A stretch of 64,000 nt of DNA from Dictyostelium discoideum (taxonomy: Eukaryota), in the NCBI GenBank assembly GCA_000004695.1, contig CM000152.2:3552001-3616000 (forward strand), given 5' to 3'. Numbering within the stretch: the first letter of the stretch is position 1; each line of letters begins with the position of its first letter. A model generated the notes under the pieces. That model was not told the origin of the DNA. It made no database searches and was given only the letters and a program-made list of their open reading frames with translations. Of the stretch, positions 33,812-64,000 are shown one piece after another. The position numbers and the translations under genes are program-made.

Positions 33812-34247
33812 CATTTAATTGGGAAAAAAAATAATAAAAAATAAAAATTATTAAAATAGAACACCAATAAGAAGATCTTAAAATTCTAATCAAAAAACAA
33901 ATGGAAATATTTTCTTTTTTATTTCTATTTTTTTTCAAATCTAAAAATAACTTTCTTAAAAAAAAAAAAAAAAAAAAGACGTGGTTTAATATTTAAATTT
34001 TTATTTTTTAATTTCATTTTTTGTGTGGCTTTTTTATTTTTTATATGCATTCACCACATGCACAACTATACAGTCAACGCTTTCATTTAATTTCCCCATT
34101 TTCTCACCAACAACAAAATACTATAAAATGAAAAAAGAAAATATTCATTTATTAAATAACAAAATAAAAAACAAATAAAACAAATAAAACAAATTTATAA
34201 ATAAATTCATTTAATAAATAATATAAAATAAAATAAAATAAAATAAA

Positions 34248-34814: not shown

Positions 34815-35079
34815 ATAAATAATCAAATAAAAGCCTTATATGTTAGTCAGTAAAAATACAAGGCTTTACTGACTAATATACAGTAAAAATAAATAAAGAT
34901 TAATAATTTTTTTTTTTTTTTAATAAACACTTATTTATTGATTTATTTTTTATTTTTTATTTGTTTTTTTTTATTATTTTTTTATTTTTTTTGTTTTTTT
35001 GGTTTATTTATTAATTTATTCGTTGTATTTTTTTTTTTTTTTTTGATTGTTTAATTAAACTACACAACTGACAGATGAT

Positions 35080-37805
35080 TTACTGGTTGATGGTGAAGGA
35101 TGAGAGCACCAACAGTATCACCAACACAAACAATTGAAATACCTGCAATTGCCCACCTGATAGTTTGGATGATCTACCGTTTGATGATGGAGGAGATAAT
35201 GGTAATTGAATTTCTTCAATTTTAACATCATAATGGAATGATGTTGAGCTAAATTGGAGATATAATACTCCTGATGTTTCATTAACAAATGAATTTGAAT
35301 GGCATGACAAACAATCGGTACTATTTGTAATATCAGTTTCATTTGAACTTAGTTTTGGGTTACTATCATACAATGTCTCATTTGGTGATAAACTGCATTG
35401 CAAATTACATGAAAGAGATACATTTGTTGATGAAACTACCAAACTTGCATAAATAATACCTGATAAACTAACACCACCAACTGATATTGAAATACCATCT
35501 TTATTATTTTTAATGGTTGGAATAACTGTAATCATTGGTTTTAAATATGTTAATATTGCATTTGGTCCCAAATCTTCTCCAATATATGTTGAAACAGAGA
35601 GTTGACTCTCTTTACAATCAGCTCTAACTATTAAAATCTTTTCATTTTGAACAATTATTGTAGTGTTTTTATAATTTGCTAATACTTTAACTTTGAATTC
35701 ATCTCCATTTGACAATAAATTCTTACCAGAAACTGTGATAAAACCTCCACAAGCAATTGTTTTATTATCCTTATTAATTATACCATAAATAACAGGTGGA
35801 AATTTTAAATTAAATAATGATTCCATTTTAATTCCATCCACTGTAATATTAATTGGACCATTTTCATAGGAGTTCAATGTTTTAATAGTTAATTGATTAT
35901 TTGTTAATGTTAGAATTTCTGATGAAATATCATTACCATTGAAATAAACTTTAATATATGATATTGAGTTACCGAAATTATTTCCATAAAATGTAATATT
36001 ATATTGACCTTTAGAAAATTTACGATTCTCAATATTTGGTGGAGCATACGAATATTCATCACTAATTGTATCTGAATTTAATTGAAAAATGAATTGTTTA
36101 TTGATACCAGTGCCATATGGTGTTGAGCATGTTGTTACATAGAAACTAGAATTTGAATATTGTAATGATGGTGTTGAACATTGAGTAGATGATGATGAAT
36201 TACCAACTGTAATACTTGGTTGTGATGATGAACTAATTGGACAATCCATATAATATATTTCAATATTTAATGAACCGTTTGAAAGATTTGGTCTATTGAT
36301 TACATTTATTAATAGTGATGATGCTGAGATTGAAATTGTATTTGAGGTCATATTAGAACCAACCAATTTCACTCGAGTGAAATTAATATTAAATGTACTA
36401 CATCTTAAAAGAGGTAATTTAAATGTCAAATTCTTTTCATCAGACGATACATTTAATTGGTCAATTTTAATATTATCATTAATTCCATTACCATATAATT
36501 GAACGAATGATTCTTCATTTTTACCAAAATGTGTACCAATTAATGTAACAAAACCATTTGAATATGATCCACTTGATAACGTTGGAGTATTATATGTTAA
36601 TGTTACACTATGAGGATTTATTGAATTACAACCACCGAAATTAACGTTAACTGGTAAATTTTTACCACCATTTTGATTTGGATCTAATTTACATTTTAAT
36701 TCATTTGTATTTGATTTAATATATGTACATTGTTTATTACCAATTGTAATTGATGGAGTAAATGATGAATTTAAAGTAGAAAATAATTTGTCTCCTTGAA
36801 TTGTTACAATACCATCGGAATAATTTGATACTGATGATACTGATATAATTAATGGTGGGAAACAATGAGTATAATTCTTTTCAGCCGGGATTTCATTTAC
36901 CTTAACACTAATTGAAATTGGGCCTAGATCAGGTCTATTAACGTTATTCACTTGAATTTGTGTATGATTTACTGAAATAATAAAATTTGTTTGCTTAATA
37001 TCATCAAAATAAACCTCTACCAAGCTTTTATCTGTAAAGAAGTTATCACCATTAATTGATAATATTAGGTACCCTCCGTCAAAAAAAGTACTTGATATTT
37101 TAGGTGATTCGTATGAAAATGGAAAAAGATTATCCCCAGTTTCATCAAAGGCAAATTCAAAATATCCAGAGCCTGGTGGAACTACTACAGTAATATTATT
37201 ACAGTCAAAAGATGGATCAGAGAAATTACCTTTAACAACAAAAGATGTCATATAATCAAATGTAGTTAGAATGTGATTTGGACCACCCCTAGATCTTAAA
37301 TAATTACCAGTAATTACTATATCACCTCCAGATGTTTTTGGTTTATTACTATATTTCAAATTAGTTACAAATGGATAATCTAAAGATGAAAGATCAAATG
37401 AACACTCTTCAACTGGACTTGATACTTCTCTTGCACATACCTTACTTTCTATACTACCCCATAATCTTGAAAATGGCTCATCTGAATGGAATGAACAATG
37501 TCTCCTATTACCAATAACTAGACTACAATTAAAATAATTTGGTGCCATTTCATATCTTGGTGTTGTTTCGTTTTGATACAAAATTAAACGGGTTGGGTAT
37601 GATCGAAAACTTTCAAAAGTTATTGAAAATGATTTTTCATCAAATATTACATCTTTGAAAAATAAATTAATTGAATAAATAACATAAACAAATTATTTAT
37701 TAAAATATTATGATACTTACCTACTGACATTGGACGACCAACTGAATGTCCTGATTTAAAAATTGAGAATAAAAATAAAATCAGTAATATTATTTTCTTT
37801 TCCAT
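35080..37805 (-). CDS. Secreted IPT/TIG-repeat Tgr-like surface protein, copy 2, about 861 aa. Exon 1 is 37805..37721, intron 37720..37653, exon 2 is 37652..35080.
   Basis: Signal-peptide exon [28 protein letters not shown] is followed by donor GTAAGT and acceptor CAAAG|AT, in frame with [36 protein letters not shown] (the track ORF starts at a TTG). The C-terminal ~45% is nearly identical to copy 1. The N-terminal ~400 aa has diverged by roughly 30-40%, by eye. Confidence 0.75.
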
Positions 37806-37909
37806 TTTTATTTATTTTTATTTTATTGAATTTGGCTTTAAAAATAATATCGATTTAAAAAAGAGAAATTTTATTATTAATCGAGAAAATAATTTTTAAT
37901 TAAATAATG

Positions 37910-37940
<31 letters not shown>

Positions 37941-38682
37941 AAAATAGTAAGAATAATAAAAAAAAAAAAAAAAAATAATTAAAATAAAAACCAGCATTAA
38001 CTTCCAAAAATAGATATTGATTGGTATCATTTCATACATCAACCAAAAAAAAGATGTATAAATCTATTAAATTCACAAACAAACAAAATCCAAAAAAAAA
38101 TTTCTTTTTTAATTATCTTTTTGGTTTGAAAATTAATTTTTATTTGATTTTCCTAAATTTTTAATAACATTCAATCATCAATTCAAAATAATATTTATGT
38201 TAAATCTTTTTTTTTATAAAAAAAAAAAAAAAAAATAAAAATAAATTTAATTGACCGATTTTAAACATTTTTTATTTAAAAATTATAAACATTTGAAATT
38301 AAAAATAAAATACAAATTTTTTAATTTTGTATTTTATTACAATCTCTTAATTTCAAATGTTACGAATTAATAATAAAACACAAATTAATTTGTTTATTTT
38401 CTTTTAAAGAATTAATTGTAAATAATAAAAATTAATTAAAACAATTAAGAATTGGATGTATGTGAATTAACTGATAATAAAAGGGTAATAATTAACCATC
38501 TTGTGTATGTGTGAGAGTATTTTTTTTTTTTTTTAAAATTTTAAACCATGGAAATAAAAAAAATAAAAAAAATAAAAAAAAAAAAAAAAAATAAAAAAAA
38601 AAAAAAAAAATGAAAATATGTTTTTTTTTTTTTTTTTTTTTTTATTATTTTTTTTAGTATACTAAAACAACAGTACTCGAAA

Positions 38683-42194: not shown

Positions 42195-42233
<39 letters not shown>

Positions 42234-42964
42234 TTAATTAAATTTTCTAAAAATACATTTTATACAGTTTTATTTACCTTTAATATTTATTAAATTGAAT
42301 TTATTAATTTTTAATAAATAAATAGCTTTTATTTTGTTAATTATTATTTTTTTTTAGTTATTTTATATTATTTTCTTTTTTGGTTGGACATATCTTCTTC
42401 TGAAATTGATGTCATCCATTCAATAAAATTACTTTGTGTGTTATTTAATAAATCTTTATCTCCATTTATCAATGATTAAAATGGTGTTGGTGGTGATGGT
42501 CTAGTTACTGTTGAGGTTGAAAGTAAAAATAATACAAAAAATAAAAATAAAAAGTGGGTTTAAAAAAAAAAAAAAATAAAAAAAAAATGAAAAAATGAAA
42601 AAAAAAAAAAAAAATTAAAAAAAATAATAATTTGATCTTGAAAATAAAAAAAAGATGGATCTATTAAATCAAAAAAAGATCCAAAAAAGTTAAAATTGGG
42701 TAAAATTTTCCAGGACAAAAACAAAAATGGTAAAAAAAAAAATTTAATAACAAATAGATTTCTTTTTATTGATTCAAATTTCGGAAAAATGACTAGATGC
42801 CCTACAAAATATAATTAAATAATATATTTAAAAAAAAAAAATAAAAAAATAAAAAAAAAGGTAAAAAATGAATCGAATTTTTTTTTTTTAAAAAATTTTT
42901 TTTTTTTTTTAAATTTCATCTTTTAATATTCTCCAATTAAAATTCACACACACAAAATATTACA

Positions 42965-43343: not shown

Positions 43344-44077
43344 GAATATTTTAAATATAGGCAGAGAGACATGTTAAATTAAGTTTGGAATATGCTGGGT
43401 TGGCATTGAGTTTACCAGCGGTCTTGAAAGACTTACACAGAGCATTGGAAAAATTTGATGCACTTGAGTCCAGTTTGATAGCTGAGCTAGAGTCTTTAAA
43501 AATACCAGTAAAAAATGCCAGTACCATACCAGTTTTGCATCCTCCAATTAACCATGTTAATACAAGTATTGCTACAACTGCTGCTGCCAGTATCAACAAC
43601 AACAACAACAATGATAACACCATTACCACAACCACCACCACCACTACTATCAGCAATGACAATCTTGCTTCAACTACAAATTCTTTACCAGTTAACTCTG
43701 TACCAAGAACCACTGCCACTTTATCAGATGTTAACAGCCTTATTACTGCAACTCTTGGACCCACTACTGCTCCTACTATTGGTTCTTCTGCAACCACTGG
43801 TGATACTACTGCAATTGATGGTACAAACACCAATGTCACCACTGATACTACCACCATAGAAACAACCATGAAGAAAAAAGGCAGACCACCACTTTTTAAA
43901 GAAATTCCAGAAAATTGTTATGTCTGTGGAGTAACCGAAACTCCATATTGGAGAAGAGGTACAGACGAAGGTGTAATGGTTGACCTCTGTAATGCATGTG
44001 GATTGCGTTACATGAAATTAGAAAAGAAAGAGAGACTTTTAAAACAAAAAAATAGTACCAGTAATGTTTTGAACTAA
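42965..44077 (+). CDS. GATA-type zinc-finger protein (single C-terminal GATA finger), about 313 aa. Exon 1 is 42965..43186, intron 43187..43360, exon 2 is 43361..44077.
   Basis: Exon 1 is MGKRKPIPSINIGNN...KFIYKN|GTAATT. A 174-bp intron with a ~70-nt poly(T) ends at ATATAG|GCA, in phase with AERHVKLSLEYAGLALS.... The C-terminal finger is CYVCGVTETPYWRRGTDEGVMVDLCNACGLRYMKLEKKER, preceded by the basic KKKGRPP. Confidence 0.8.
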
Positions 44078-44979: not shown

Positions 44980-45520
44980 TAATGTATATAGATAATAAAA
45001 AATATACATTCCATACACACCAAATGTGTTGTGTCGTTTCATTTTTGAAAGAAAAAAATGAAAATTCCCACTATTACCACCAAACACATTGGCATTCATT
45101 TTTTTTTTATGTCAATAAATTAAATGAATACAAAAAAAACTCACACTCACCACCACACCCACTTCTATATATCAAATTTGTATTGCATTTTTATTTTGTG
45201 TCTTTTCATAATAATAACAAAACACACCAAATGTGTTGTGTCTTTTCATTTTTTAAAACAAAAAATACTATAATTGTATTTATTCTCTAGTGTCGTTTCA
45301 TTTTTGAAAGAAAAAAAGAAAACTCTCAATATTACCCCAAACAAATTGGCATACATTTTATGTCAATAAATTATATGAATACAAATTAAAAAAACTCACA
45401 CCATCTATACATCTTATTTGTATGACATTTTTATGTTGTGTCTTTTCATTTTCCAAACAAAATTCTACAACTGATTTCATTCTCTTGTATCGTTTCATTT
45501 TTTAAAAAAAATAATACATT
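44980..45520 (-). repeat. Two units of the ~250-bp repeat family (same family as the tandem array at 60400..61130, opposite orientation)
   Basis: Repeated core acaccaaatgtgttgtgtc(g/t)tttcattttt...gaaagaaaaaaa(g)aaaa(t/c)tc(c/t)ca(c/a)tattacc...aaacacattggcat is the reverse complement of ...atgccaatttgtttggtggtaatagtgag...ctttcaaaaatgaaacgacac...aaaatgaaaagacacaacacatttggtgtg at 60420..60560. Confidence 0.7.
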
Positions 45521-48211: not shown

Positions 48212-49559
48212 AATAGTGCGATATATTATTACTTGGTTTATTGCACTAAATTTTATTATGACAACACTATGACCACAAAAGTTTGTATAACTTAATTTTT
48301 TAATTTTCCATTGTTTTTTTTTTTTTTTTTAAAATTGATGTTTTTATCCTATCAGAGAAAAAATATTTTTTTAATATAAATTAGTATATAAAAATTGAAC
48401 ATTCAAAAATACACAATATGATAAAGAAAATAATTTATCCGTTCTTTTTTTTGAATTTTTTTTTTTTTTTTTGATCTAGATTTACAAATAAAAAATTATC
48501 ATTAAAAAACAAAATATGCCAATGTGTTTGGTGGTAATAATGAGATTTTTCTTTTTTTTTCTTTCAAAAATGAACCGACACGATAGAATGAATTCAATTT
48601 TAGTATTTTTTTCCTTCAAAATTGAAAAGACACAACACATTTGGTGTGTTTTTTATTTTTTTTATAATTTTTTTTTTTATTAAATTAAGAGAGTTGTTAA
48701 ATAATAATTATAATAATAAAAATAATTTTCAAAACAATTAAAATAAAGAATATATTACATCATCCAACAGAAAATACATTTTATACAATTTAATTTACCT
48801 TTAATATTTATTAAATTGAATTTATAAATTTTAAATAAATAAATAACTTTTATTTTTGTTAATTATTTTTTTTTTTTTTATAAAAGGTTGTTATTAAAAA
48901 ATTTTTTGTTTGGTTTTTTTTTTTTTTTTTAAATTTAAAAAAAGAATGTTAACTTATAGATCACTTTGCTAATGCCAGATAGTAATGAAATTAAACCATA
49001 GAAACTATTAAAATATTTTAGTGGTGAATTTTTTTATATTGCCTTGAATCAAGAGATTCTTGCTGCCTATGGCTGTTTGCCTATTTTTTCGTGTGCGACC
49101 ATTTGGTAAACTTGACATTTTAGGCTGCACCATGGTGATCGGCGACCACCACATACAAAGACTTAATTGAAAAAAAAAATTAAAATTTTATTTTTTAAAT
49201 TAGGCTCGTGACCAAATAAAAAACGCTTCAAACATACAACGAAATAAAATAAAATAAAATAAAATAAATAAAAAAATTATTTGTAATAATATTTTAAAAA
49301 ATAAATATTAATTTTAAAATTAATCAATTATTCTTAAACTATTATTTTATATAAATAAATCATTATTACCTTATTTAATTAAATAATATAAACAATTATT
49401 TTATTATTTTAATTTTCTATTAAATAAATTTGTTTTTTTATTTTTGTTTTATTTTTTCTTCATCTACAAGAATCATATTCTATATGTTAATGATTATTGA
49501 CTGTATTGTTGCGCATATGGTGATTTTTTTTATCTTTTTTTTTTTTTCTTTTTAAATAA

Positions 49560-50280
49560 TAATTTAATACAACTTTGTATTCACCTAAAAAAGATTTTGA
49601 ACAAGTCTATCACTGGATTTCTAGTTTCTCTGTAATACCAATAATAACAAGACGAATAGTTACACTAGCATCGTAGCAAAACCTTTGATTACCATAGAAT
49701 CAGAGATTAAAAATGGGTCAATATTCTCTTGTACTTGACCTTTCTTAATTGGGTCATATTCAGCAGTGATTGATGATTCATCATAAGTCATGTTGATAAT
49801 CAGCGTTAGCATGTAAAGCAACTTCAATTGATCTAATAGAATAAAGCATTTCTAGTGGTACAACATTCTTTGCTAATTAAACCATCACAAGCGGTTTCAT
49901 GATTTTCAAATACCACAGCGATAGATCTTTTCAATGATACATTTCGACAGAATTGGTTATCATATTTCAAGAGGGCACACTCTTCCAAAGGTTTCAATAC
50001 TTTTCAAACACCGATTGTGATGATTATAATTTTCTCTTTATTAAATTGGATAACTCTTCAATCATCATTCTCCAATTTTTGAAAATAAAAAAACAAAATT
50101 AGTAAAAATAATTAATTTATTTGTTCATTCATTTATTTTATTTATTTATTAATTTAATTTTTTTTTTTTTTTTTATTTTTATTTTTTTTTAAAAAAAAAA
50201 AAACAACCTACATTCATATGATATGGTGAACTTTTTACTTGTTTTACTATTTTGGTTGACCATATCCCCTGAATTATTTT
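49560..50280 (+). mobile_element. Left arm of a diverged inverted repeat. It is a copy of the interspersed GC-richer element, in inverse orientation to 54535..55650.
   Basis: 49961..50075 (...ggtttcaatacttttcaaacaccgattgtgatgattataattttctctttattaaattggataactcttcaatcatcattctc) is the reverse complement of 54820..54915, at about 85% identity. 50215..50280 is the RC of 54535..54600. AT-rich insertions separate the blocks. Confidence 0.6.
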
Positions 50281-51666
50281 GATTGGACTAAAAAAAAAAA
50301 ATAAAAAAAAAAAATAAAAAATTGTGAATGATAAATATTAAATATATTATTTTTTTTTTTTTTTTTTTTTAAATAAATAATAATTTAATACAATGTGGTA
50401 ACAATTGTGAATAAAAAAATAATAATTAATTCATTTTATGGTCAAACATCAAAAAATAAAAAATAAAAAAAGATCTGGCCAATTTTTTTTTTTTTTAACG
50501 TTGCGATAACTTTTTTTTTTTTTGATTTTTTTTTTTTTTTTTTTTTTTGATTTTTTTTTTTTTGATTTTTTTTTTTGCTTTTTATAAACTTTTTTTTTTT
50601 TCTCAACGTTTTCTGTATAAATTTTTTAAAAAATTGTTGGTGCAGTTAATTAATAAATAAAAAAATATAAAAAAAAAAAATTTTAGATTATTAATTGTTT
50701 TCTTTTTTTATTTTTATTTATTTTTTTTTTTAAAAAGCTCATTATTTTCTTTAAAAGGATTATAATGAGAATTGGATGGGTGGGAGGGGGTTATATTACC
50801 TATTTTTTAAGAAGATTTACTTTGTTATACCTTTTCTTTCAATGGTAACTATTGATAAAAAAATAAAATTATAATAATAAAATTAAAATTCAAATATTAA
50901 TTTTTTTTTTTTTTTTAATTTTAAAGATTAGTTTATGGTAGAGAAAACTTCCTAAAGAGCAACAAAGGTTCTGATTGGATAAACTTCAATTTACGGCAAT
51001 GGTACTTTAAAGTTTCCAAAAAGATTGTCCCAAAAGGTACGGCAATGGTGCTATTGGAACAAAAATATAACCAGCAACAATAAAAAAAAAATAAAAAATA
51101 AAAAAAAAAATAAAAAAAACTATTTCTTCTTGTGTTTGTTTTATTTATTCCTTTATTACTATACATTTTTTTTATATACCTCTTTGTTTTATTATCTTTT
51201 TTATCATTAAATTAGTGATATAAATCAAATAATAGTTTTATTTTTTTTTTTTTTTTGTTTTTTTTTTTATTATTTTTTTTTTTTTTTTATTACTATACAC
51301 ACCAAATGTGTTGTGTCTTTTCATTTTTCAAACCAACAAATACTGCATTTGCAATAATCTTTTTAATTATGTTGTGTTTATTTTTTTACATTACCAAAAA
51401 TTACTATTTCACCCAAACAGTGGTTGGTAGTGTTGTTATTTTTTTTACTTATATTTTTTTATTTTTTTATTTTTTTAATTTTTTTTTTTATGTGAGAATT
51501 AAATTAAAATACAAAAAAAAAATAAGAATAAAACCATTTTTTGTATATTTTTTCTATTTTCCCACGAAATCACAGAATTGTTGACCCCCAATGAGTGGTT
51601 TTTGTTTTTATAATTTTTTATTTTTTTTTATTTTTTTCAATTCATACACACAAAATAAAATCATAA

Positions 51667-52055: not shown

Positions 52056-52451
52056 ATGGTAAAAAATAGTGAACATCTACCATGGTATTTAGGCAGTGAC
52101 TCTGCAACCGCTGCTTCCACAGCAACTGATGCCACCTCTGCAGATGGTGCCGCCTCTGAAACTGATGCCGCCTCTGCAACTGATACCACCTCTGCAACTG
52201 ATCCCACCTCTGCAACTGATCCCATTGCCACTACCAATACCACCGGCATTACATCCAGTGGTCCTACTACCAACGGTAGAAGAGGTAGACCATATATATC
52301 AACACCACCAAATCGTTGCTATGATTGTGGAAGAACCAGATCTCCATATTGGAGAAAAGGAACCTACAACGGCCAAGTTGTACATCTTTGCAACGCTTGT
52401 GGTTTAAATCATATCAAAATCGCAAAAAAATCATCAGCAATATTTTTGTAA
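52056..52451 (+). CDS. GATA-type zinc-finger protein (short, single C-terminal GATA finger), at least 131 aa
   Basis: RRGRPYISTPPNRCYDCGRTRSPYWRKGTYNGQVVHLCNACGLNHIKIAKK matches the C-x2-C-x17/18-C-x2-C finger and basic lead-in of the other two GATA genes here. The N-terminal part is an 18-bp in-frame tandem repeat encoding (TSATD/ASATD)n with unusually GC-rich codons. Confidence 0.7.
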   Translation: MVKNSEHLPWYLGSDSATAASTATDATSADGAASETDAASATDTTSATDPTSATDPIATTNTTGITSSGPTTNGRRGRPYISTPPNRCYDCGRTRSPYWRKGTYNGQVVHLCNACGLNHIKIAKKSSAIFL

Positions 52452-53289
52452 TTTAAAATCAAAACAATTTTATTTAATTTTACTTTTCAAAAAAAAAAAA
52501 AAAATAATAATAATAATTTGTATTAACAAATAAATAAATAAATAAAAATATAGCAATAAAGATTAAAAATTAAAAACACATAAATTATTTATTTTTTAAT
52601 ATTTCTTTTTTTTATTTATTTATTTTTAATAATTTAAAAATTAATTTTGGATATAATCCACACTTGATCCTGTTGATGTTGCAGTTTTTGCTAAAATGTT
52701 TGTCAATTGTTTTTTTATTTTTTATTTTGTAAATGAGTTATAAAAGCATTTAGAGGTAAATCAATTGTTTTTTTATTTTTTATTTTGTTTTTTTTAAGTT
52801 TTATAAATTTCTATGGGGAGTCGCACAGAAAATAAAATAATAAAAGAAAAATAAAAAAATAAAAAAAAACAAACCCACAAAATTACTTTTCACCACCTTT
52901 AATGCTGAAATTTTTACGTCAGACCCCTTATAAATTTCTTTATTTCTTTATTTATTTTATTTTTTTTAAATATTCATATTAAAAATAAATAAAATTAAAT
53001 CGTTAAAAAATTAAAATAAAAAATTTTGATAAATAATTATTTATCATTCATTTTTTGTAATTGTTTTTTTATTTTGAAGACAACAAAATGGAAGATTTTT
53101 TAAAAAAAAAAAAAAAAAAACCAAAAAAAATTGATTTATTTGGAATATTTTTTTATTTTATTTATGTTTTTTTTATGGAATGTGGGTTTTTTTATTATCT
53201 GTATTTTTTTTCTCTCAAAAAAGAAACGACACTACACATTTGTTGTATGAATTTATAAAACCTTAAAATTAAATATAAAAAAAAAAATA

Positions 53290-53401
53290 AAAATAAAAAA
53301 AATAAAAATAAAAATTCCCTTTCTAAAGAGTGAAACATTATGTGTCTTTTTTTGTTATTCATCAAATTTTATTTATTTTTTTTTCTATTTTTTTATAATT
53401 A

Positions 53402-53492
<91 letters not shown>

Positions 53493-53545
53493 TAAATAAA
53501 TAATACAGAAATTAAGTAAATAAAATTCGGATGGAACCTACATAA
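53290..53545. repeat. Repeat segment present in inverted orientation at 61755..62000. It flanks the 3' side of both copies of the 160-aa ORF, in different arrangements.
   Basis: RC of 61921..61990 matches 53300..53365. 53505..53545 (tacagaaattaagtaaataaaattcggatggaacctacat) is the RC of 61760..61800. Each is adjacent to a 50-70-nt homopolymer (poly-T at 53413..53482, poly-A at 61811..61870). Confidence 0.6.
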
Positions 53546-53550
53546 ATTTA

Positions 53551-54033
53551 TTATTGTCCTTGATTTGGTTGGTTTGGTTGGTTTGCTGCTGCTGCTGCTG
53601 CTGCATCATCCTCAGCGAATAACTGGGCGATGAGATTCATGTCAACTAAATCGTGAGTATTAACTGGTGTTAAAACTGCATAGTTAATATCAATATGGGG
53701 ATATTGTTTTTGTGTATATAATATGGCCTCGTCAACTTCAGCTCTGATATCCCAACCTGCTTGATCAGATCTTGCGAAAAAAATAGCAGCGGTGTCACCC
53801 ATTTTTGGGTACCATATTGGGTTTCTATTGAGTCTTGCTTTAAATCTTTTTCTGGCATTTGTTATGTAATTAGGTGAGGCGTAATCATAATTGGCACCGT
53901 TATTGGTAGCAGCCAAGGCAAGTACAGTTTGTGGTATTTGATCTAAATCTCTAATTTTTATTGCTTTTGTGACAATTACTTTTGAACAATACACACCATT
54001 GTCATTATATAAACTTGGGTTGATTGACGACAT
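53551..54033 (-). CDS. Hypothetical 160-aa protein with GC-richer codon usage, copy A. The ORF is probably repeat- or transposon-associated.
   Basis: MSSINPSLYNDNGVYCSKVIVTKAIKIRDLDQIPQTVLALAATNNGANYDYASPNYITNARKRFKARLNRNPIWYPKMGDTAAIFFARSDQAGWDIRAEVDEAILYTQKQYPHIDINYAVLTPVNTHDLVDMNLIAQLFAEDDAAAAAAANQPNQPNQGQ. The coding GC is about 40%, against roughly 25-30% for other genes here. It is 99% identical to 62124..62606, including ~200 bp of the 5' flank. No family recognised. Confidence 0.5.
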   Translation of the reverse strand: MSSINPSLYNDNGVYCSKVIVTKAIKIRDLDQIPQTVLALAATNNGANYDYASPNYITNARKRFKARLNRNPIWYPKMGDTAAIFFARSDQAGWDIRAEVDEAILYTQKQYPHIDINYAVLTPVNTHDLVDMNLIAQLFAEDDAAAAAAANQPNQPNQGQ

Positions 54034-54534
54034 TCTTGAAAAAATAAAAAAATTAAAAAAAAAAAATTTTTTTTGAAATGATTTTTATCTAAAATATTTC
54101 GAGATTTTATAAAAAAAATTAAACTTTTTTTGATTTTGCAGCGTCACCACTACTATGTAAAATATTTACAATGCATTTACAATGCAATTACATTGTGATT
54201 TGTCTTTAAGTAAATTAACGTATCCCATATTAATTTTATCTATAATCAGAGAGATATAAAACTAATTTTTTTTTTTTTTTATATCTAAAAACTAGGAAAA
54301 AATATTAAAAAATAAAAATAAAAAAATCTTTTTAATTAAAAATATTTATTCGGTCATTCATTTTTCTTTTTTTTTTTTAAAAAAAAAACAATAAATAAAT
54401 AAAGGAAAAAAAGAAATTTATGAAACTTAAAAAAAAAAAGTAAAAAAGTTTTTTTTGGAATTTATTTTTTTTTTTTTTTTATATTTATAATTCAACAATA
54501 AACAAAATCAACAACATAATGTCTAAATGATCAA

Positions 54535-54608
54535 ATAATTCTCTGGGTGAAGATATGGTCAACCAAAATATAAAACAAGTAAAAAAAGTTCAATATAGAT
54601 GTAAGTTG

Positions 54609-54639
<31 letters not shown>

Positions 54640-55650
54640 GAAAAAATAAAAACAAATAAAAAATAAATAAAAATAAAAAATAAATAAAATAAAAAAAAAA
54701 AAAATAAATAAATAAAATAAATAAATAAATAAATAAATAAATAAATTAAAAAATTAATGTATGAATTAGTAAATAAATAAATTAATATTTTTACTAATTT
54801 TTTTTTATTTATTTTCAAATTAGAGAATGATCATTGAAGAGTTATCCAATTTAATAAAGAGAAATTTATTATGGTCACAATCGGTGTTTGAAATGTATTG
54901 AAACCATAGAAAGGGTGTACCCGCTTGAAATATGACAACTAATACTCGAAATGTACCATTGAAAAGAGCTATCGCTATTGTATTTGAAAATCGTGAAACC
55001 ACTGGCGATGATTTAATTGGCAAAGAATGTGTACCACTAGAAATGGTTTAATCTATTCGATCAATAGAAATTGCTTTACATGTTCTCGCTGATTATAAAC
55101 ATGACCTATGATGAATAATCGATCACTGCTGAATGTGACCCAATTAAGAAAAGTCAAGCATAAGAGAATATGACCCATTCTTAATCTCTGGTTCTATGGT
55201 AATCAAAGGTTTTGGTACTATGTTAGTCACAGCCGTTGGTGAAATTATAATAATTTCATTCAATAGTAAACAAGTTAGCCAAAATCAACAAAAATGTTAA
55301 ATTATGTTACACTTTGAATTATACAAATTCATTATTAGTTTTAGCAAGTGAAAACTCCATTCGAGACAAAACAAGATAATATTGGTGTTGTTATTATTGG
55401 TATTACAGAGAAACTAGAAATCCAGCGATAGACTTGTTCAAAATCTTTTTTAAGCCAATACAACGCTCAATTAAATTATTATTTTTTAAAATCACATATT
55501 CACAACTATACAGTCAATAATCAAATGGTCGTACACCACCAGCTGGTGGTCAGTGACCTAATATGAGAAGACCGCAGTCTACAAATATCTAGCGAACACT
55601 GACCCATTATTGTCAAACGGCCGTCGGACACCAGCCTTTTAATTCATTAC
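54535..55650 (-). mobile_element. Right arm of the inverted repeat. It is the longest copy of the interspersed GC-richer element, with a terminus at ~55650.
   Basis: Inverse-complement matches to 49560..50280. The terminal 120 bp matches 42040..42160. It contains a short ORF (54820..55023) of no recognisable function. Followed at 55655..55720 by a small direct duplication (gatctataagttaaaaattttt x2). Confidence 0.6.
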
Positions 55651-55794
55651 CACCTGGCATTGGCAAAAGTGATCTATAAGTTAAAAATTTTTAACTTATA
55701 GATCTATAAGTTAAAAATTTTTTTTAAATTGTTTAAAAAAAAAATAAAAAAAAAAATTAATTAAATTTTCTAAAATACATTTTATACAGTTTTA

Positions 55795-55872
55795 TTTACT
55801 GTTGTAGGGAATTTTTTTTGAAATTTCGCTTTCTAAACGGCAGTGAATTTTTACACTAAAATACACTGTTTA
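55795..55872 (+). repeat. Solo copy of the 70-bp terminal inverted repeat of the MITE-like element (see 62791..63734)
   Basis: ctgttgtagggaattttttttgaaatttcgctttctaaacggcagtgaatttttacactaaaatacactgtttatac is identical to the left TIR at 62791..62866. Confidence 0.7.
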
Positions 55873-56518
55873 TACCTTTATTTATTAAATTGAATTAATA
55901 AATGTATAACTTTTTTTTATTTTTTTTAATAAATTTTTTTTTTTTTTTTTTTTTTTTATATGGATTGATGTATAAACAAAATAATTCAAAATTGTAAAAT
56001 TAATTATTAAAATTAAAAATAAAAATAATAAAAAATAATAAAAATTAATAATTAAAATTAAAAATAAAAATAATAAAAATATGAATTTTATTACTAAATC
56101 TTTTTTTTTTTTTTTTTTTAATTTTTATTCCCATTTTTCCTTTTTTTTTTTTTTTTTTTAGATTTACTGTACTTTACTTTATATTTGTCGTCAATGCATC
56201 ACTTTGAAAATTTAAAATACATAACAAAAAAAAAAAAAAAATTAAACAGTGCAGGAATTGATTTTTCAATTAAAAAAAAAGAAAAATCTCACTATTTCCA
56301 TGATTATTGTTTCTATTAATACTATAACCCCATTATTATTACCATTTATATTAATATTATTATAAATTGTTTTTTTTTTTTTTGTTCACCCCCAATAAAT
56401 TTATCACAAAATATGTCCTCATTCATTAGTTATTAAAGAAACTAAAAATAAAATAAAACAATAAATATAATTAAAATAACAAAATAAAATAAAATAAAAT
56501 AAAATAAAATAAAATAAA

Positions 56519-56636
56519 ATGTTATTAGAAATTCTCAACAGTTTAGCATCATTTTTTAGTAAGATATTCTCATTATTTGAAGGTAAAAAAGATATAAGAA
56601 AATTATTGATTGGAATTTCTGAAATCATTGGTTTTA
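56519..56636 (+). pseudogene. 5' fragment (first ~30 codons) of a third ARF-like GTPase copy, truncated by a deletion that fuses it to the antisense Tgr-like pseudogene
   Basis: atgttattagaaattctcaacagtttagcatcattttttagtaagatattctcattatttgaaggtaaaaaagatataagaaaattattgattgga matches the first ~96 nt of the ARF-like genes ([32 protein letters not shown]). From ~56604 the sequence bears no relation to ARF, and by 56650 it is the reverse complement of the Tgr-like C-terminal region. Confidence 0.7.
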
Positions 56637-58760
56637 TACGTCAATGTTGTACTTGGTCCCTGGACGAACTCCTGTAGTATTTTTATTATTTGATTTTACA
56701 TTAACTTTGAATTCTTTGTCACTTGTCAATAAATTCTTACCAGAAACTGTGATATGACCTCCACAAGTAAGTGTTTTATTATCTTTATTTGTTATATGAT
56801 AAATGACAGGAGGTAATGTTAAATAAAAGAATGAATCCATATAATTACCATCTACAGTAATATTAATTGGGCCATTTTTATATGAATCCAATATTTTAAT
56901 AGTTAATTGATGATCTTTTAATTCTAGAATTTCTGATGAAATATCACTACCATTTAAATAAACTTTAATTAATGATGTTGAATTACCAAAATTATTACCA
57001 TGTAATTCAATATTAGTTCCATCATCTGAAATTGTACGATTCTCAACTTCAGGTGGTGCATATGAGAATTGATCACTGACTGTCTCTGAGTTTAATTTGA
57101 ATATAAATTGTTTATTAATACCAGTGCCATATGGTGTTGGACATGTTGTTTTATAGTAACTAGAATTTGATGATGGTATTGAACATAGTGAGGCTGATGA
57201 TGAATCACCAACAGTAATACTTGGTGCTGGTGAACTAATTGTACAATCCATATAAAATATTTCAATATTTAATATTCCATTTGATACTGTTGGTCTATTG
57301 GTTACATTTACTGATAATGATGCAGAAATTGAAAGTGTGTTTGCGGTAATATTAGAACGAGTGAAATTACTATTAAATGATCTACATCTTAAATGAGGTA
57401 ATTCAAATGTTAAACTCTTTTCATCAGATGATACATTAAATTTGCTAATGTTTGTATTATTAATTCCATCACCTATAATTGAATGGATGATTCGTTATTT
57501 GTACCAAGATTTGTACCAATTAATGTAACGATACCATTTGAATATGACCCACTTGATAATGTTGGAATATTATATGTAAATAATACACCATTAGGACTTG
57601 TTGAATCACAACCACCGAAATTAACTTTAACCGGTAAGTTTTTACCACCCAGTTCATTTTTTTCTTATTTACATTCCAATTCAGTTGGTGTTGATATAAT
57701 AAATGTACATTGTTTATCACCAATTATAATTGATGGTGTCAAAGATGAATTTAAAGTCGAAGATAGTTTTTCACCTTTAATTGTTACAATACCATCTAAA
57801 CGATTTGATAATGATGATATTGATGTTATAATTGCTGGGAAACAATGATTATAATTCTTTTCAATTGAGACACCATTTACGGTAATACTAACAGACATTG
57901 GGCCAGGCGCAACTCTATTAATGTTACTCACTTGAATTTGTGTATGATTTACTGAAATAATAAAATTTAGTTGAGTAATACCATCAAAATAAACCGTAAC
58001 CAACTTTTTATTTGTAAAGAAGTTATCACCATTAATTGTTATTATTTGTTTCAATGAGTCAAAAACGGTACTTGATATTTTAGGTGATACGTATGAAAAT
58101 GGTACTTTAAATACACCAGTTTCATCATAGTACAACCTAAAAGTTCCAGATCCTGGTGGAAATATTACAGTAATATTATTTAGAGTAGATCCATCAGAGA
58201 AATTACCTTTAACAACCAAAGGTTTAGAAGTATCAATGGAATTTAGAAGGAAATTAGGACCACCAAATAATCTTAAATATGAGCCAGTAATGACCCTATC
58301 TTCACCAGATGTTTTGGTTTTTTACTATATTTCAAATTGGATGCTTTTGGATAATATATTAAAGGCGAAACATCAAATGTACAATCCTCAACAGTATTTG
58401 ATATATCTCTAGCACATATCTTACTGTCTATACTACCCCATAATCTTGAGAATGGTTCATCTTAATGGAATAAACAATGCTCTCTCCATCAACTAGGGTA
58501 CAATTGAAATAATTTGGTGCCATTTCAGTTCTGGGTTCTTTTTCGTTTTTATACAAAATTAAACGGGTAGAATATGGGAGATTACTATTAAAAATAAATG
58601 TAAATGATTTATCATCATATATTACATCTAATAAAAAAAATTAATTACATAAACAAATTATTATAAATAATTAAAAATTTAATGATAATACCTATTGGTG
58701 ATGGACGATACATTGAATATCCTGATTTAAAGAACAAAAATAAAATCAGTAATATTATTT
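56634..58760 (-). pseudogene. Third Tgr-like IPT/TIG gene copy, degenerate: several frameshifts/stops and the C-terminal ~200 codons deleted
   Basis: A signal exon ([26 protein letters not shown], ~58755..58680), a 68-bp intron, then a body homologous to copies 1 and 2. The body is broken into ORF pieces 57665..58219 and 56634..57251, with stops or frameshifts near 58330, 58470, 57640 and 57480. It ends ...[24 protein letters not shown], where copies 1 and 2 continue for ~200 more aa. Confidence 0.7.
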
Positions 58761-58926
58761 TCTGTTCCATTTTTATCAATAATTTTTTTTATTTTGAACT
58801 TGGCTTTGTCAATAATTTTTATAAAAGAAAATTAAAAAAGAGAAATTTAATTATTTTAGGAAATTTTAATTTTAATTAAATAAATAGATAAAAAAAGATA
58901 AAAAAAAATTAATAAATGTAGAAAAA

Positions 58927-58961
<35 letters not shown>

Positions 58962-59439
58962 ATAAATATATAAATTAAAAAAACAAAATAAAATAAAAAA
59001 ATAAATAATAATAATGAAAAAAAACCATAAAATTCTAAAAAGAGGCTATCTGGTGAATGAGTTTGAGTGTGGTGTTTCATTTATATGAAAAGGGAGTGGT
59101 TTTTTTTGTTGAATGGGGTATTTTTTTTTATGTTAAACCCCTTTTTCTAAAAATAAAAAATGTTTTTTTATGTAAATTTTTTATTAGGAAGTGTGAATTA
59201 TATAATGAAACAGTTGTCAATGTAAAAATGGATACGGTTGGAAGAAAATATTATTTAAATCCACTCGAGTTTCCTTACAAGAATCTGCTATGCGATTTAA
59301 ATATTTTATTTAAATTCACACCAGAAATCCCATAATTCTCAAATATACCCACTACAGGTGGAGAATTCGGGTTCACCTTCAACTTTCCTTGCAACTATAA
59401 GCGAACCGCCAAATCAATATATAAAACAATATATAAAGA

Positions 59440-60110
59440 AACATCTATTTTAAATCTCAGTTTCGATACAAGCAAAAATCAGTTCGTTACTTACTTGGAT
59501 CCAGGGTGTGGTCCTTTATATTTAATTAGTGATAATATCACCATTTTCAGTACAACAATTGAAAGTGGTGCCATACCCAATGTACCAATTCTCGATGATG
59601 ATAAAGGTATTTTAACTATTCAAGGTAGTAATCTCTACAACACGTCAATTAAAATTTATTTCAACTAACATTGTGAAAGACACCAACCCTATTGGTACAA
59701 TAGATGCTTCCCATTCTTCTGTCACATTCTCAGTTGAAGAATTTTTAACTCCAAATAATTGGACAATTGAAGTCTCAATATGTGGCTCATTTTATAAAAG
59801 CTATTCCTACCCATATGGATTACCGGTTCTCACTAAAATGGAAGGGGGTACTTAATGATAATGGTGGTAATATGGTATTTACTGGAAAGCATTTAAGACC
59901 AAAACCAATATTGACAAAAAGAAAACTGCAACATTGGAAGAACCTGGATTTTTTATTGAAAATAATAATACCATTTTTATATTCCTACCAAATAATACTC
60001 AACCTGGTTTTATGAACCTTGTTGTTGGTGACGGTGGTCGTGAAATATTTACATCTCCATGATATAATTATCGCTCCAACTATTACTGCTGGCCAAACCT
60101 TCAAATCAAG
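59440..60110 (+). pseudogene. Additional degenerate IPT/TIG (Tgr-like) gene fragment with frameshifts
   Basis: Frame-shifted pieces: ...CGPLYLISDNITIFSTTIESGAIPNVPILDDDKGILTIQGSNLYNTSIKIYFN*, KDTNPIGTIDASHSSVTFSVEEFLTPNNWTIEVSICGSFYKSYSYPYGLPVL, NDNGGNMVFTGKHLRPKPI, FLIENNNTIFIFLPNNTQPGFMNLVVGDGGREIFTSP. The G(S/T)NL / ITV-type strand motifs are similar to the intact copies, but no continuous frame exists. Confidence 0.35.
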
Positions 60111-60399
60111 TGGTAATAAATGGTTAAATAAATAATAAAAAAAAAAAAAAAAATATAATCCAGGTTTAATTAATTTTAAAACAAATTATTTATTCCATCC
60201 ATTTTTTTTATTATTTTATTAGTATAGATAAATAGAACACTCAAAAAATTAACAAAATGATATAAAAAATAAAAAGAAATGAAGGTGACCACTTTATTTT
60301 TAAATTTTTAAATTTTTTTTTTATTTTTTTTTTTTTATATATATTTAATTATATTTCTATAAATATATATATGAAAAATATAAATAAAATGATTTTATT

Positions 60400-61130
60400 T
60401 ATTTATTGAAGTATAAAAAAATATATGAGAATGTGTTTGGTGGTAATAGTGAGGGTTTTCTTTTTTTTTCTTTCAAAAATAAAACGACACTAGAGAATGA
60501 ATACAATTTTAGTATTTTTTGTTTTAAAAAATGAAAAGACACAGCACATTTGGTGTGTATTGGGTGTGTGTTTTTGTTATTGTTATGAAAAGACAAACAT
60601 AAAAATGCCATACAAATTTGTTTTTAGAAGTGGGTGTGGTGGTAAGTGGGTTTTTTATATGTATTTATATTCATATAATTTATTGATTATAAAAAAAATA
60701 TTCCAATGTGTTTAGTGGTAATAGTGGGAGTTTTCTTTTTTTTCTTTCAAAAATGAAACGACACAAGAGAGTGGGTTTAGTTGTGCAATTTTGTTTAAAA
60801 AATGAAAAGACAAAAAATAAAAATTACATACAAATTAGATGTATAGAAGTGGGTGTGGCGGTAAGTGTGAGTTTTTTATTTGTATTTATAATTTATTGAT
60901 ATAAAAAAAATATATGATTATTTGTTTGGTGGTAATAGTGAGGATTTTCTTTTTTTTTGTTACAAAAATGAAACGACACTAGAGAATGAATACAATTTTA
61001 GTATTTATTATTTTAAAAAATGAAAAGACACAACACATTTAGTGTTTGTGGAATGTGGGTTTTTTTATTATCTGTATTTTTTTTCTTTCAAAAAAGAAAC
61101 GACACTACACATTTGTTGTATGTATTTTAT
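60400..61130 (+). repeat. Tandem array of about three units of a ~250-bp repeat (satellite-like)
   Basis: Three successive units each contain ...gtgtttggtggtaatagtgag(g/a)(g/t)ttttc(t)nctttcaaaaatgaaacgacac(t/a)agagaatgaatacaattttagtattt...aaaaaatgaaaagacacaacacatttggtgtg...ggtgtgg(t/c)ggtaagtg.... Partial dispersed copies lie at 44980..45520(-), 48500..48660, 51290..51340 and 53080..53260. Confidence 0.7.
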
Positions 61131-61814
61131 TATCTAGATAATATTTATTTTATATTATAAATCTAAAGAAATGAACTCTAAATAAAAATTAATAGAGTAT
61201 ATGTGTTTGGGGTGAATAATATAATTGTTTTTTATTTTATTTGAATGGGTACTTGTGTTGTTTTTTATTTTTTTATTGATAAAAATAGATACTATGAGAT
61301 TAATTTTATTTATTTTTTTTTTTTAATTTTTTTTTTTTATTTTTTTTATATATTAATAAAATTATCTAACTATTTATTTATTATTTTTTATTTTGGACTA
61401 TAGATTTTTTTTTTTTTGGGAAAAATAAGAATTTAAAAAAAAGAAAAAAAGAAAACAAAATAAATTAATAAAATGAAAAAAATAAATAATAACTAAAACA
61501 GCTAAAACTAAATTAAATAATATATTATATAAATAATAATTATAAATAACAACCCAACTAAATCTAGTTAGATTTATTTTTGATTGTTTTTTTTTTTAGG
61601 GGTTTATTGCCATTCTTTAAAATTTCTATTTATTTTTTAAAAAATTAAAATAAAAAAAAAATATCTTGGGACGAGCAACACTGGTATTAGCATGGTAAAC
61701 CTAATGTATTTTCAAACTCTCATATTTTTGTTCTATAACAATGGAAACATAGAAATATTTTTATGTAGGTTCCATCCGAATTTTATTTACTTAATTTCTG
61801 TATTATTTATTTAT

Positions 61815-61875
<61 letters not shown>

Positions 61876-62123
61876 TAATGTAAATTTTATTTATTTTTTT
61901 TCTATTTTTTTATAATTATTTTAGTAATTGTTTATTTTAATAGTAATATTCAAATTTGATGAATAACAAAAAAAGACACATAATGTTTTACTCTTTAGAA
62001 AGGGAATTTTTATTTTTATTTTTTTTATTTTTATTTTTTTTTTATATTTAATTTTAAGGTTTTATAAATTCACAATGAGACCTAGTATTATTATATAAGA
62101 GTTAAATTAAATAAACTAATTTA

Positions 62124-62606
62124 TTATTGTCCTTGATTTGGTTGGTTTGGTTGGTTTGCTGCTGCTGCTGCTGCTGCATCATCCTCAGCGAATAACTGGG
62201 CGATGAGATTCATGTCAACTAAATCGTGAGTATTAACTGGTGTTAAAACTGCATAGTTAATATCAATATGGGGATATTGTTTTTGTGTATATAATATGGC
62301 CTCGTCAACTTCAGCTCTGATATCCCAACCTGCTTGATCAGATCTTGCGAAAAAAATAGCAGCGGTGTCACCCATTTTTGGGTACCATATTGGGTTTCTA
62401 TTGAGTCTTGCTTTAAATCTTTTTCTGGCATTTGTTATGTAATTAGGTGAGGCGTAATCATAATTGGCACCGTTATTGGTAGCAGCCAAGGCAAGTATAG
62501 TTTGTGGTATTTGATCTAAATCTCTAATTTTTATTGCTTTTGTGACAATTACTTTTGAACAATACTCACCATTGTCATTATATAAACTTGGGTTGATTGA
62601 CGACAT
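62124..62606 (-). CDS. Hypothetical 160-aa GC-richer protein, copy B (2 aa differences from copy A)
   Basis: Identical to 53551..54033 except V14E and V47I. The 5' flank (62607..62790) is identical to 54034..54240, until it is interrupted by the MITE-like insertion. Confidence 0.5.
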   Translation of the reverse strand: MSSINPSLYNDNGEYCSKVIVTKAIKIRDLDQIPQTILALAATNNGANYDYASPNYITNARKRFKARLNRNPIWYPKMGDTAAIFFARSDQAGWDIRAEVDEAILYTQKQYPHIDINYAVLTPVNTHDLVDMNLIAQLFAEDDAAAAAAANQPNQPNQGQ

Positions 62607-62790
62607 TCTTGAAAAAATAAAAAAATTAAAAAAAAAAATTTTTTTTGAAATGATTTTTATCTAAAATATCTCGAGATTTTATAAAAAAAATTAAACTTTT
62701 TTTGATTTTGCAGCGTCACCACTACTATGTAAAATATTTACAATGCATTTACAATGCAATTACATTGTGATTTGTCTTTAAGTAAATTAA

Positions 62791-63009
62791 TGTTGTAGGG
62801 AATTTTTTTTGAAATTTCGCTTTCTAAACGGCAGTGAATTTTTACACTAAAATACACTGTTTATACGTAGTGTAAAAATTCACTAAAATTTTTTTTTTTT
62901 TTTTATAAATTAAAAACAATTTATTTAATCAAAATAATAAAAAAACTAATTTTAAACAATTATTTGTTGTTTAAGAATTAAATAACAATTTAAATTGTTA
63001 GATTTGAGC

Positions 63010-63047
<38 letters not shown>

Positions 63048-63334
63048 TTTTTTTTTTATTTTTTATTTTTCTTTTTTTTTTATTTTTCATTTTTTTTTTA
63101 TTTTTTATTTTTTTTTTTTATTTTTTTTTTTTCATTTTTTTTTTTATGTAACGAAGACACAAAAATAAGTTAATATTAAATAAGTGAACAAAGACACTAA
63201 TTATAGTTGACCCGCATTTAAATAATAATAATAATAATAATAATTCTATTAACTCGAGTTTATAATTATAAATAATATAAATACTAAAAATAATTATATA
63301 AACAATAATGAATACCATAATTAAAATATAAACC

Positions 63335-63379
<45 letters not shown>

Positions 63380-63470
63380 ATTTTTTTCAATTTTTTTTTA
63401 TCGAACAATTTTATTTTATTCCCCAAAAATGAAAACAATCGATAAAAAAAAAAATTGAAAAAAATAATTG

Positions 63471-63502
<32 letters not shown>

Positions 63503-63734
63503 GCAAACTAAATTTTTTTGTTATAAAAAATAAATAACAAGCAAATAACTGAATAAAATTGGTTTTTTATTTTTCTGATTAAATAAATTGTTTTTTAATT
63601 TAATTATAAAAAAAAAAAAAATTTAGTGAATTTTTACACCATGCATAAACAGCGTATTTTAGTGTAAAAATTCACTGCCGTTTAGAAAGCGAAATTTCAA
63701 AAAAAATTCCCCACAACATTAACGTATCCCATAT
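62791..63734. mobile_element. Non-autonomous DNA-transposon-like element (MITE/foldback type, ~944 bp) with ~70-bp terminal inverted repeats and a TTAA target-site duplication
   Basis: The empty site is visible in the paralogous copy at 54230..54240 (gtaaaTTAAcgtatccc). The filled site here is gtaaaTTAA[TGTTGTAGGGAATTTTTTTTGAAATTTCGCTTTCTAAACGGCAGTGAATTTTTACACTAAAATAC ... gtattttagtgtaaaaattcactgccgtttagaaagcgaaatttcaaaaaaaattccccacaaca]TTAAcgtatccc. The internal ~760 bp are AT-rich with no ORF. Confidence 0.75.
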
Positions 63735-64000
63735 TAATTTTATCTATAATCAGAGAGATATAAAACTATATTTCCCTAATTATAGATCAAACAAATAAGA
63801 ATCAATAATCTAATTCACAAATTCAATTTTAAAAAAAGGATAAAAAAATCAGGCAATAATAATTATGGGATGTGTAAAACATTCACAACAATTATATTTA
63901 TTTATTCATCGTTATGTTGACATGAATTTTGAACATCTTTAATAAGAAGAAATTGTTTTATATAGTCTGACATTAACAAACTAAACGATTCGGTGCATTG

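Follow-up and report, generated by a model that had tools for sequence, protein, structure and literature searches.

The two near-identical reading frames of a Dictyostelium discoideum tgr cluster are the vegetative-specific V4 gene pair, a young local duplication

The Dictyostelium discoideum gene V4, which encodes a vegetative-specific protein, has been used to mark the growth phase since the late 1980s. McPherson and Singleton reportedly described an antisense phenotype in 1992 (Dev Biol). In the literature V4/lmcA is off at the start of starvation-induced development and is thought to be necessary for the growth-to-development transition. Its primary sequence paper, as given by the papers that cite it, is that of Singleton, Manning and Ken (1989, NAR 17:9679), whilst nutrient-responsive promoter elements are credited to McPherson and Singleton (1993, J Mol Biol 232:386) by PMC12625978, in which lmcA is described as the gene encoding V4. 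As a vegetative-stage marker for quantitative PCR (qPCR), lmcA is down-regulated in development (PMC3597604), and lmcB is likewise a vegetative-specific gene, the product of which, LmcB, has been quantified by tandem mass tag (TMT) proteomics and its cellular function stated to be unknown (PMC8204557). Growth-phase expression and repression at starvation have been reported for lmcA/lmcB (PMC12625978, PMC8204557, PMC3597604), and lmcA, lmcB and srsA have been grouped as acting similarly to countin (PMC3848188). Here we analyse a stretch of 64,000 nucleotides of D. discoideum DNA (assembly GCA_000004695.1, contig CM000152.2, positions 3,552,001 to 3,616,000 of the forward strand; hereafter the window), in which two near-identical open reading frames (ORFs) of 160 codons, copies A and B, had been singled out as either the passenger of a mobile element or a duplicated gene of foreign origin.

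The two ORFs lie in direct orientation, 8.57 kb apart, on what is taken to be chromosome 3, and an exact-sequence look-up matched each of them to an annotated gene.

53551..54033, minus strand: V4 copy A, coding sequence (CDS) of 160 amino acids; exact-sequence match to DDB_G0280533, UniProt P14330
62124..62606, minus strand: V4 copy B, CDS of 160 amino acids; exact-sequence match to DDB_G0280543, Q54V27

The translation of copy A is EAL67068.1 / XP_641100.1 / P14330, the 'Vegetative-specific protein V4' of D. discoideum AX4, and that of copy B is EAL67073.1 / XP_641104.1 / Q54V27 (DDB_G0280543). The initial annotation of this DNA, made from its letters alone, had described two minus-strand ORFs of 160 residues that differ at two of them, and the differences prove to be V14E and V36I, caused by two nucleotide changes that are both non-synonymous, with no synonymous change between the copies. 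Its statement that the protein has no assignable motif and is of unknown function holds at the biochemical level, where no profile library gave a match, but not in the wider sense, the gene being a long-studied marker of growth. A tblastn search set the V4 copy number in the 64-kb window at two, and the V4 protein cluster consists of the two genes and one alternative gene model, with nothing else in it. Set beside the described D. discoideum V4 (P14330; lmcA/lmcB), the locus is the same gene pair and shows no difference. With a probability of about 0.9, the two ORFs are the already annotated V4 pair, a young local duplicate of a native D. discoideum gene. Copy A is probably lmcA and copy B lmcB; the name 'cinD', which was also considered for V4, was dropped, as the paper with cinD-1 draws no link to V4 and PMC12625978 names V4 as lmcA.

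Several points weigh against this reading or parts of it. The assignment of lmcA and lmcB to the individual copies (V4 = DDB_G0280533 = lmcA) is one that we infer. No named homologue from other organisms was found, dictyostelids included, and the distribution of the family is patchy. On the side of function, Pfam, NCBIfam, PHROGs and PDB sequences returned nothing for V4, and the fold model presented below was built on an alignment of nine sequences. With two coding differences only, selection is inseparable from recency or gene conversion.

At the nucleotide level (BLASTN against the window) the copies share a block of 674 bp, at 53545-54218 in A and 62118-62790 in B, that is 99.4% identical (E = 0), the differences being three substitutions and one indel that falls within a T-run, an identity far beyond chance in a genome of 21% GC. 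Besides the CDS the block takes in 5-6 nt beyond the stop codon and, on the other side, 185 bp ahead of the ATG; past an insertion in copy B the upstream homology resumes for 55 bp more (54214-54268 versus 63718-63773, 98%). The approximately 200 bp of upstream sequence which the copies were said to share were confirmed. The homologous unit as a whole is about 1.1 kb in size (A 53172-54268 versus B 61045-63773) and its outer parts are as follows.

54219..54268, minus strand: distal upstream homology of copy A and upstream limit of the duplication; BLASTN match to B 63723-63773
63723..63773, minus strand: distal upstream homology of copy B, displaced by a transposon; BLASTN
53172..53254, plus strand: distal end of the duplicated unit in copy A (block 'a'), which belongs to a local repeat family; BLASTN
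61045..61127, plus strand: distal end of the duplicated unit in copy B (block 'a', 96% identical to that of A); BLASTN

After block 'a', copy B has 626 bp (61128-61753) that are without a counterpart in A.

The V4 duplication, with 96-98% identity in the flanks and 99.4% in the gene, is much younger than the remaining segmental duplicates of the window, for which identity is 80-93%. Divergence within the unit is uneven, at 4/674 positions in the gene and promoter block versus 9/381 in the flanking homologous blocks (Fisher p = 0.018), and the lower value would fit purifying selection or gene conversion. The same contrast is the starting point of a different history, in which the duplication is older and the near-identity of gene and promoter has been upheld by gene conversion between the copies: the flanks have had time enough for a nested inversion, a 626-bp indel and the insertion of a transposon, and the other duplicates of the window have drifted to 80-93% identity. 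However, the V4 flanks are still closer to one another than any other duplicate in the window, so that the event is young anyway, purifying selection on the CDS and promoter accounts for the contrast equally, and both coding differences are non-synonymous, leaving zero synonymous ones for calibration. We regard an old duplication maintained by conversion as unlikely, if still worth bearing in mind. Under the preferred reading of a young duplication, the unit of about 1.1 kb (A 53172-54268) was duplicated recently, after which the 3' flank of one copy was rearranged, from 5 nt after the stop codon onwards, and copy B gained a 928-bp non-autonomous transposon with terminal inverted repeats (TIRs) at -185.

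The rearranged 3' flanks occupy the following positions.

53248..53552, no strand assigned: copy A, 3' flank with the T75 tract at 53407-53481; counterpart of B 61754-62072; BLASTN
61754..62072, no strand assigned: copy B, 3' flank with the A49 tract at 61822-61870 and with its arms inverted relative to A; BLASTN

That one segment recurs in the two 3' flanks in opposite orientations, each time next to a homopolymer, had been seen in the initial annotation and was confirmed: A 53248-53369 and 53433-53552 are found inverted at B 61952-62072 and 61754-61870, with 96-98% identity, and the homopolymers are the T75 and A49 tracts. The breakpoint lies 5 nt past the TAATAA stop. Between the two inverted arms a 42-nt core (B 61882-61923, A 53364-53406) keeps its direct orientation, so that the rearrangement is nested or template-switch-like, not a simple inversion; AATAATT/AATTATT microhomology is found at its junctions (61871-61951 versus 53360-53407). 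Since the rearrangement starts 5 nt after the stop codon, the mRNAs predicted for copies A and B must have unrelated 3' untranslated regions (3'UTRs).

Upstream of the genes the copies are distinguished by the transposon, the site of which could be read in both its filled and its empty state.

62791..63718, no strand assigned: 928-bp non-autonomous TIR transposon, 185 bp upstream of the copy B ATG; filled/empty-site comparison, BLASTN
54215..54218, no strand assigned: empty target site in copy A, with one TTAA; comparison with copy B

Copy A reads GTAAA-TTAA-CGTAT across the uninterrupted target whilst copy B reads GTAAA-TTAA-[element]-TTAA-CGTAT, the element having the ends TGTTGTAGGG ... CCCCACAACA. 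The flanking TTAA motifs are at 62787-62790 and 63719-63722, a 5-bp ATTAA duplication being equally possible. The TIRs are about 300 bp long (62787-63087 and 63425-63722, 85% identity), a 17-bp sub-terminal hairpin could be read directly from the sequence, and the 30-nt element terminus has three occurrences in the window where none is expected. No credible ORF was present within the element in the ORF list, all of its ORFs being of low complexity, and because of this it is at best non-autonomous.

Clean duplications of TTAA are characteristic of piggyBac and Kolobok elements, and piggyBac termini are of the form CCC...GGG. A piggyBac type was considered on account of the TTAA flanks and rejected, since the termini are TGTTG...CAACA, not CCC...GGG. 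These termini match the pattern TGTNR ... YNACA given for Ginger2/Tdd elements (PMC2836005, Bao, Kapitonov & Jurka 2010), and Ginger2 elements other than Tdd-4/5 are described as having 4-bp target duplications and a preference for AT-rich targets (PMC2836005). The resemblance to Tdd-4 and Tdd-5 (Ginger2, PMC2836005) lies in the fit of TGTTG to TGTNR, in the length of the TIRs (about 300 bp, compared with 260 bp in Tdd-4, 297 bp in Tdd-5 and about 50-300 bp for the Ginger2/Tdd group; PMC2836005) and in the short AT-rich target duplication of 4 or 5 bp, whereas the element differs from them in being without an integrase-like ORF and in measuring 928 bp versus 3.8 kb. A non-autonomous derivative of Tdd-4/5 (Ginger2) is the leading, putative assignment, drawn from the termini and the lengths of TIRs and target duplication. 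Elsewhere, between the V4 copies, a 76-nt fragment at 55800-55875 is identical to the outer part of the element TIR; it sits between TTTATTTAC and CTTTAT, and the paralogous sequence at 42210-42290 (site near 42277) is without it. This fragment may represent a copy that was truncated or the footprint of a transposition.

If the V4 ORF had been carried by an uncharacterised mobile element as its passenger or accessory gene, as had been proposed, its two copies would be the products of transposition, and both do lie in repeat-rich DNA, with a TIR element abutting the promoter of copy B and a 76-nt TIR fragment at 55800-55875 between them. The element is, however, wholly outside the ORF and present at copy B only, the copy A target site being uninterrupted; the ends of the 1.1-kb unit (53172/54268, 61045/63773) are without TIR, long terminal repeat (LTR) or target duplication; there are just two V4 copies in the 64 kb; and V4 is an annotated, expressed host gene. 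Nor did a Pfam scan of 22 window ORFs reveal a transposase or integrase domain. With no terminal repeats or target site duplication of its own, no transposase, and a separate element as its neighbour, the passenger proposal was not borne out, and we consider it extremely improbable.

The upstream part of the shared block comprises the proximal promoters.

54034..54218, minus strand: copy A proximal promoter and 5' untranslated region (5'UTR), 185 bp shared with B; alignment
62607..62790, minus strand: copy B proximal promoter and 5'UTR, 184 bp, with one substitution and one T-run indel relative to A; alignment

Candidate functional promoter elements in them are a TATAAAA at 54105-54111 (copy A) and 62677-62683 (copy B) and a tandem 11-mer, TGCATTGTAAA x2, at 54165-54186 (copy A) and 62737-62758 (copy B). 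An alternative model of copy A, KAM9949871.1, has 180 amino acids, begins at an ATG further upstream (54228) and removes by splicing a GT-AG intron of 135 nt (54169-54035) in which the TATA box lies. In copy B the upstream ATG is split from the gene by the transposon and the 180-residue model is impossible there, because of which the extension in KAM9949871.1 is probably an annotation artefact. A scan for bacterial promoters and terminators did no better than with shuffled sequence and is irrelevant to a eukaryote.

In order to place the protein, profile searches had been suggested; the Pfam scan of the 160-residue protein gave no family match, scans of V4 and its relatives against Pfam, NCBIfam and PHROGs gave no family either, and a PDB sequence search, whether with the single sequence or with a profile, returned nothing below E = 0.7. 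A word-indexed search of 5.8 billion proteins found V4's own cluster only. Using phmmer against 1.84 billion representatives, seven relatives of 88-179 amino acids were obtained (E 1.8e-8 to 5e-4), none of them named; they can be aligned along the full length of the protein, at 27-42% identity according to how this is measured. A word-indexed search with the family alignment recovered four of the nine aligned sequences and no new relatives, and a scan of JGI metagenomes added three further loci with uninformative neighbours. The best relative, P0004, aligns pairwise with V4 over residues 2-149 (E = 3e-18) and was assembled from runs SRR14181580 and SRR14181581 in contigs of about 41% GC; the protein is absent from NCBI-annotated sources. 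These two runs are of a culture of Vermamoeba vermiformis with the Dependentiae symbiont Vermiphilus pyriformis, 36.4% GC (10.1101/2021.04.23.440484). P0004 is likely to derive from the Vermamoeba nuclear genome, and such a source speaks for a family of long standing among eukaryotes, amoebozoans at the least, and against a foreign gene. For the remaining six relatives the sources are metagenomic or run assemblies. The relative P0009 is encoded on the ENA ERZ28573544 scaffold (L001 437-907, 65% GC), and the ORF beside it (L001 2298-3938) matches family-B DNA polymerases weakly, with Pol alpha as the closest (E = 7e-16). A viral context by way of this PolB-like neighbour was considered and dropped, given the weak Pol alpha likeness and the lack of named relatives.

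At 37.5%, the GC content of the V4 ORFs exceeds that of the window (21.3%) and of most neighbouring ORFs (17-29%). The initial annotation had put codon GC at about 40%, far above that of neighbouring genes, which is true of most of them, whilst three other window ORFs reach 37-44% (a MIP channel at 36.8% and two GATA-finger genes at 38.5-44%). By codon position the values are 48% (GC1), 38.5% (GC2) and 26% (GC3). The protein contains 24 Ala among its 160 residues (15%), along with Pro, Gly and Asp, and its codons include AGA for Arg in 7/7 cases, AAA for Lys in 7/7, CAA for Gln in 9/10, CCA for Pro in 7/9, GGT for Gly in 4/5 and TTA for Leu in 6/10. Of the 17 other window ORFs tabulated, 13 have a GC3 of 8-15% and four one of 20-30%, compared with the 26% of V4; the C/(C+T) ratio at two-fold sites, 0.36 in V4, is 0.07-0.17 in the same 13 and 0.22-0.35 in the other four. 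The raised GC of V4 is thus a matter of an Ala-rich amino-acid composition together with a moderate leaning towards codons that end in C. In all else the choice of codons is typical of Dictyostelium and gives no sign of recent foreign origin, because the GC excess is mostly in codon positions 1 and 2 and the synonymous choice is native. Sharp and Devine are said to have found in 1989 that C-ending bias marks highly expressed Dictyostelium genes. The moderate bias of V4 would be consistent with high expression.

These values also bear on the proposal that V4 was acquired horizontally from a bacterial or viral source of higher GC and then duplicated. Its overall GC of 37.5% is well over the 21% average of the window, the searches yielded neither a Pfam family nor, outside D. 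discoideum, a named homologue, and P0009 is on a metagenomic scaffold of 65% GC beside a weak family-B DNA-polymerase match. Against this, GC3 is only 26% and the synonymous codons are typical of Dictyostelium, with the excess in positions 1 and 2; native genes of the window also reach 37-44% GC; the closest relative is from a Vermamoeba culture, on contigs the GC of which fits the amoeba and not the symbiont; phage families and viral structures gave no match; and the PolB-like neighbour of P0009 is without named relatives. Such an acquisition is in our judgement very unlikely. Of the earlier suggestion of a recently duplicated host gene of foreign origin, the recent host duplicate therefore stands (a 99.4% identical block with both copies annotated) and the foreign origin is not supported, given the GC3 of 26%, the native codons and the relative from the Vermamoeba culture.

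Across the family alignment the conserved motifs are C-x-RV in strand 1, GWYP, F-[FWY]-[KA]-R-[SD]-D-x3-W, FAVL-x-PVN and LF, with nine invariant columns (W74, F85, R88, D90, W94, A119, P123, V124 and L138). D. discoideum V4 differs from the relatives by an additional stretch of about 24 residues, inserted within approximately residues 26-59, and its tail is of low-complexity Ala/Gln/Pro. Inspection by eye, without a predictor, gave no obvious signal peptide or membrane segment, and V4 would on this basis be soluble. Structure prediction, also suggested at the outset, was carried out with AlphaFold and the nine-sequence alignment (pLDDT 72.5, pTM 0.62; pLDDT 37 without the alignment), and the model has three main strands (16-26, 84-89 and 114-121) on helices 56-68, 96-110 and 132-150, a predicted small two-layer alpha/beta sandwich of ferredoxin-like type. 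Foldseek returned the same fold groups without significance (E >= 0.013), and the BFVD viral structures gave no significant match. The likeness to the dimerisation/lid domain of M20 peptidases (1ysj, 1cg2) and to YBL001c/MTH1187/DUF77 (1lxj, 1lxn) is a fold-level resemblance of a medium-confidence model, V4 having 6-11% identity to those ferredoxin-like structures and no demonstrable shared catalytic or ligand-binding residues.

As a low-confidence working model, V4 is most likely a small soluble module, binding a partner or small ligand that would report nutritional state, rather than an enzyme, and its abundance would follow the supply of nutrients. More broadly, V4/Lmc may be the only named member of a hitherto unrecognised, ancient family of small proteins (about 90-180 amino acids) in microbial eukaryotes, at least Dictyostelium and probably Vermamoeba, that would share a ferredoxin-like fold and, on the surface, the conserved motif [KA]-R-[SD]-D-x3-W ... 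PVN and may bind a ligand or partner reporting nutritional state, and the two young copies may already be diverging in regulation through their 3'UTRs and the transposon between copy B and its distal upstream sequence. We offer this wider proposal tentatively, its chances being somewhat short of even.

The observation that led to this analysis is real but ordinary, the gene pair being already known and annotated, and as a discovery it has little value. What the re-examination does is to lift the suspicion of mobile-element cargo or of a recently transferred foreign gene, and it adds a base-level account of the differences between the copies outside the CDS, namely the unrelated 3'UTRs and the transposon at -185 in copy B, which are useful for copy-specific probes, qPCR primers and knock-outs and for dealing with multi-mapping in RNA-seq. 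It also adds distant relatives and a predictable fold for a supposed orphan, and with them a foothold on its role in the growth-to-development switch.

The window around the V4 pair is a tgr gene cluster shaped by segmental duplication of arf / tgr / GATA-finger units, with duplication units extending over 25451-29292, 33984-38014 and 56419-58966. The Arf-containing blocks at 25451-26327 and 33984-34855 are 93% identical. The genes of these units are as follows.

25717-26283: Arf-family GTPase gene adjoining the Tgr gene at 26410-28857
26410-28857: intact Tgr gene (TgrO1-like Ig and IPT/TIG), 85% identical to 35080-37581
34248-34814: Arf-family GTPase gene adjoining the Tgr gene at 35080-37581
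35080-37581: intact Tgr gene (TgrO1-like Ig and IPT/TIG), 85% identical to 26410-28857
56673-58966: third tgr copy, frame-disrupted and about 80% identical, between the V4 genes
30758-31339, minus strand: GATA-zinc-finger ORF
43385-44077, plus strand: GATA-zinc-finger ORF
52056-52451, plus strand: GATA-zinc-finger ORF
22246-22318, minus strand: tRNA-Lys(UUU)

The GC content of the GATA-finger ORFs is unusually high for the genome (38-44% in the two that were measured), and one of them is 1.1 kb from copy A. The members of the local repeat family, to which the distal end of the V4 duplication belongs as the last unit, are about 215-275 bp long and share the core GGTGGTAATAGTGAG..TTTTC(T)nCTTTCAAAAATGAAACGACAC...AAAAAATGAAAAGACAC; about 3.5 tandem units lie 3' of copy B at 60394-61133, and further sites are at 44986-45514 (inverted), 48501-48649, 51295-51344 and 53172-53254. 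This repeat family had no Rfam match, and in the window and repeat region together the tRNA-Lys(UUU) gene was the only Rfam/ARAGORN match besides two chance-level Rfam hits. Just upstream of the duplication boundary of copy A, 54552-55484 is an inverted paralogue of 49554-50266, about 4.5 kb away and 82-90% identical to it, a further sign of local rearrangement.

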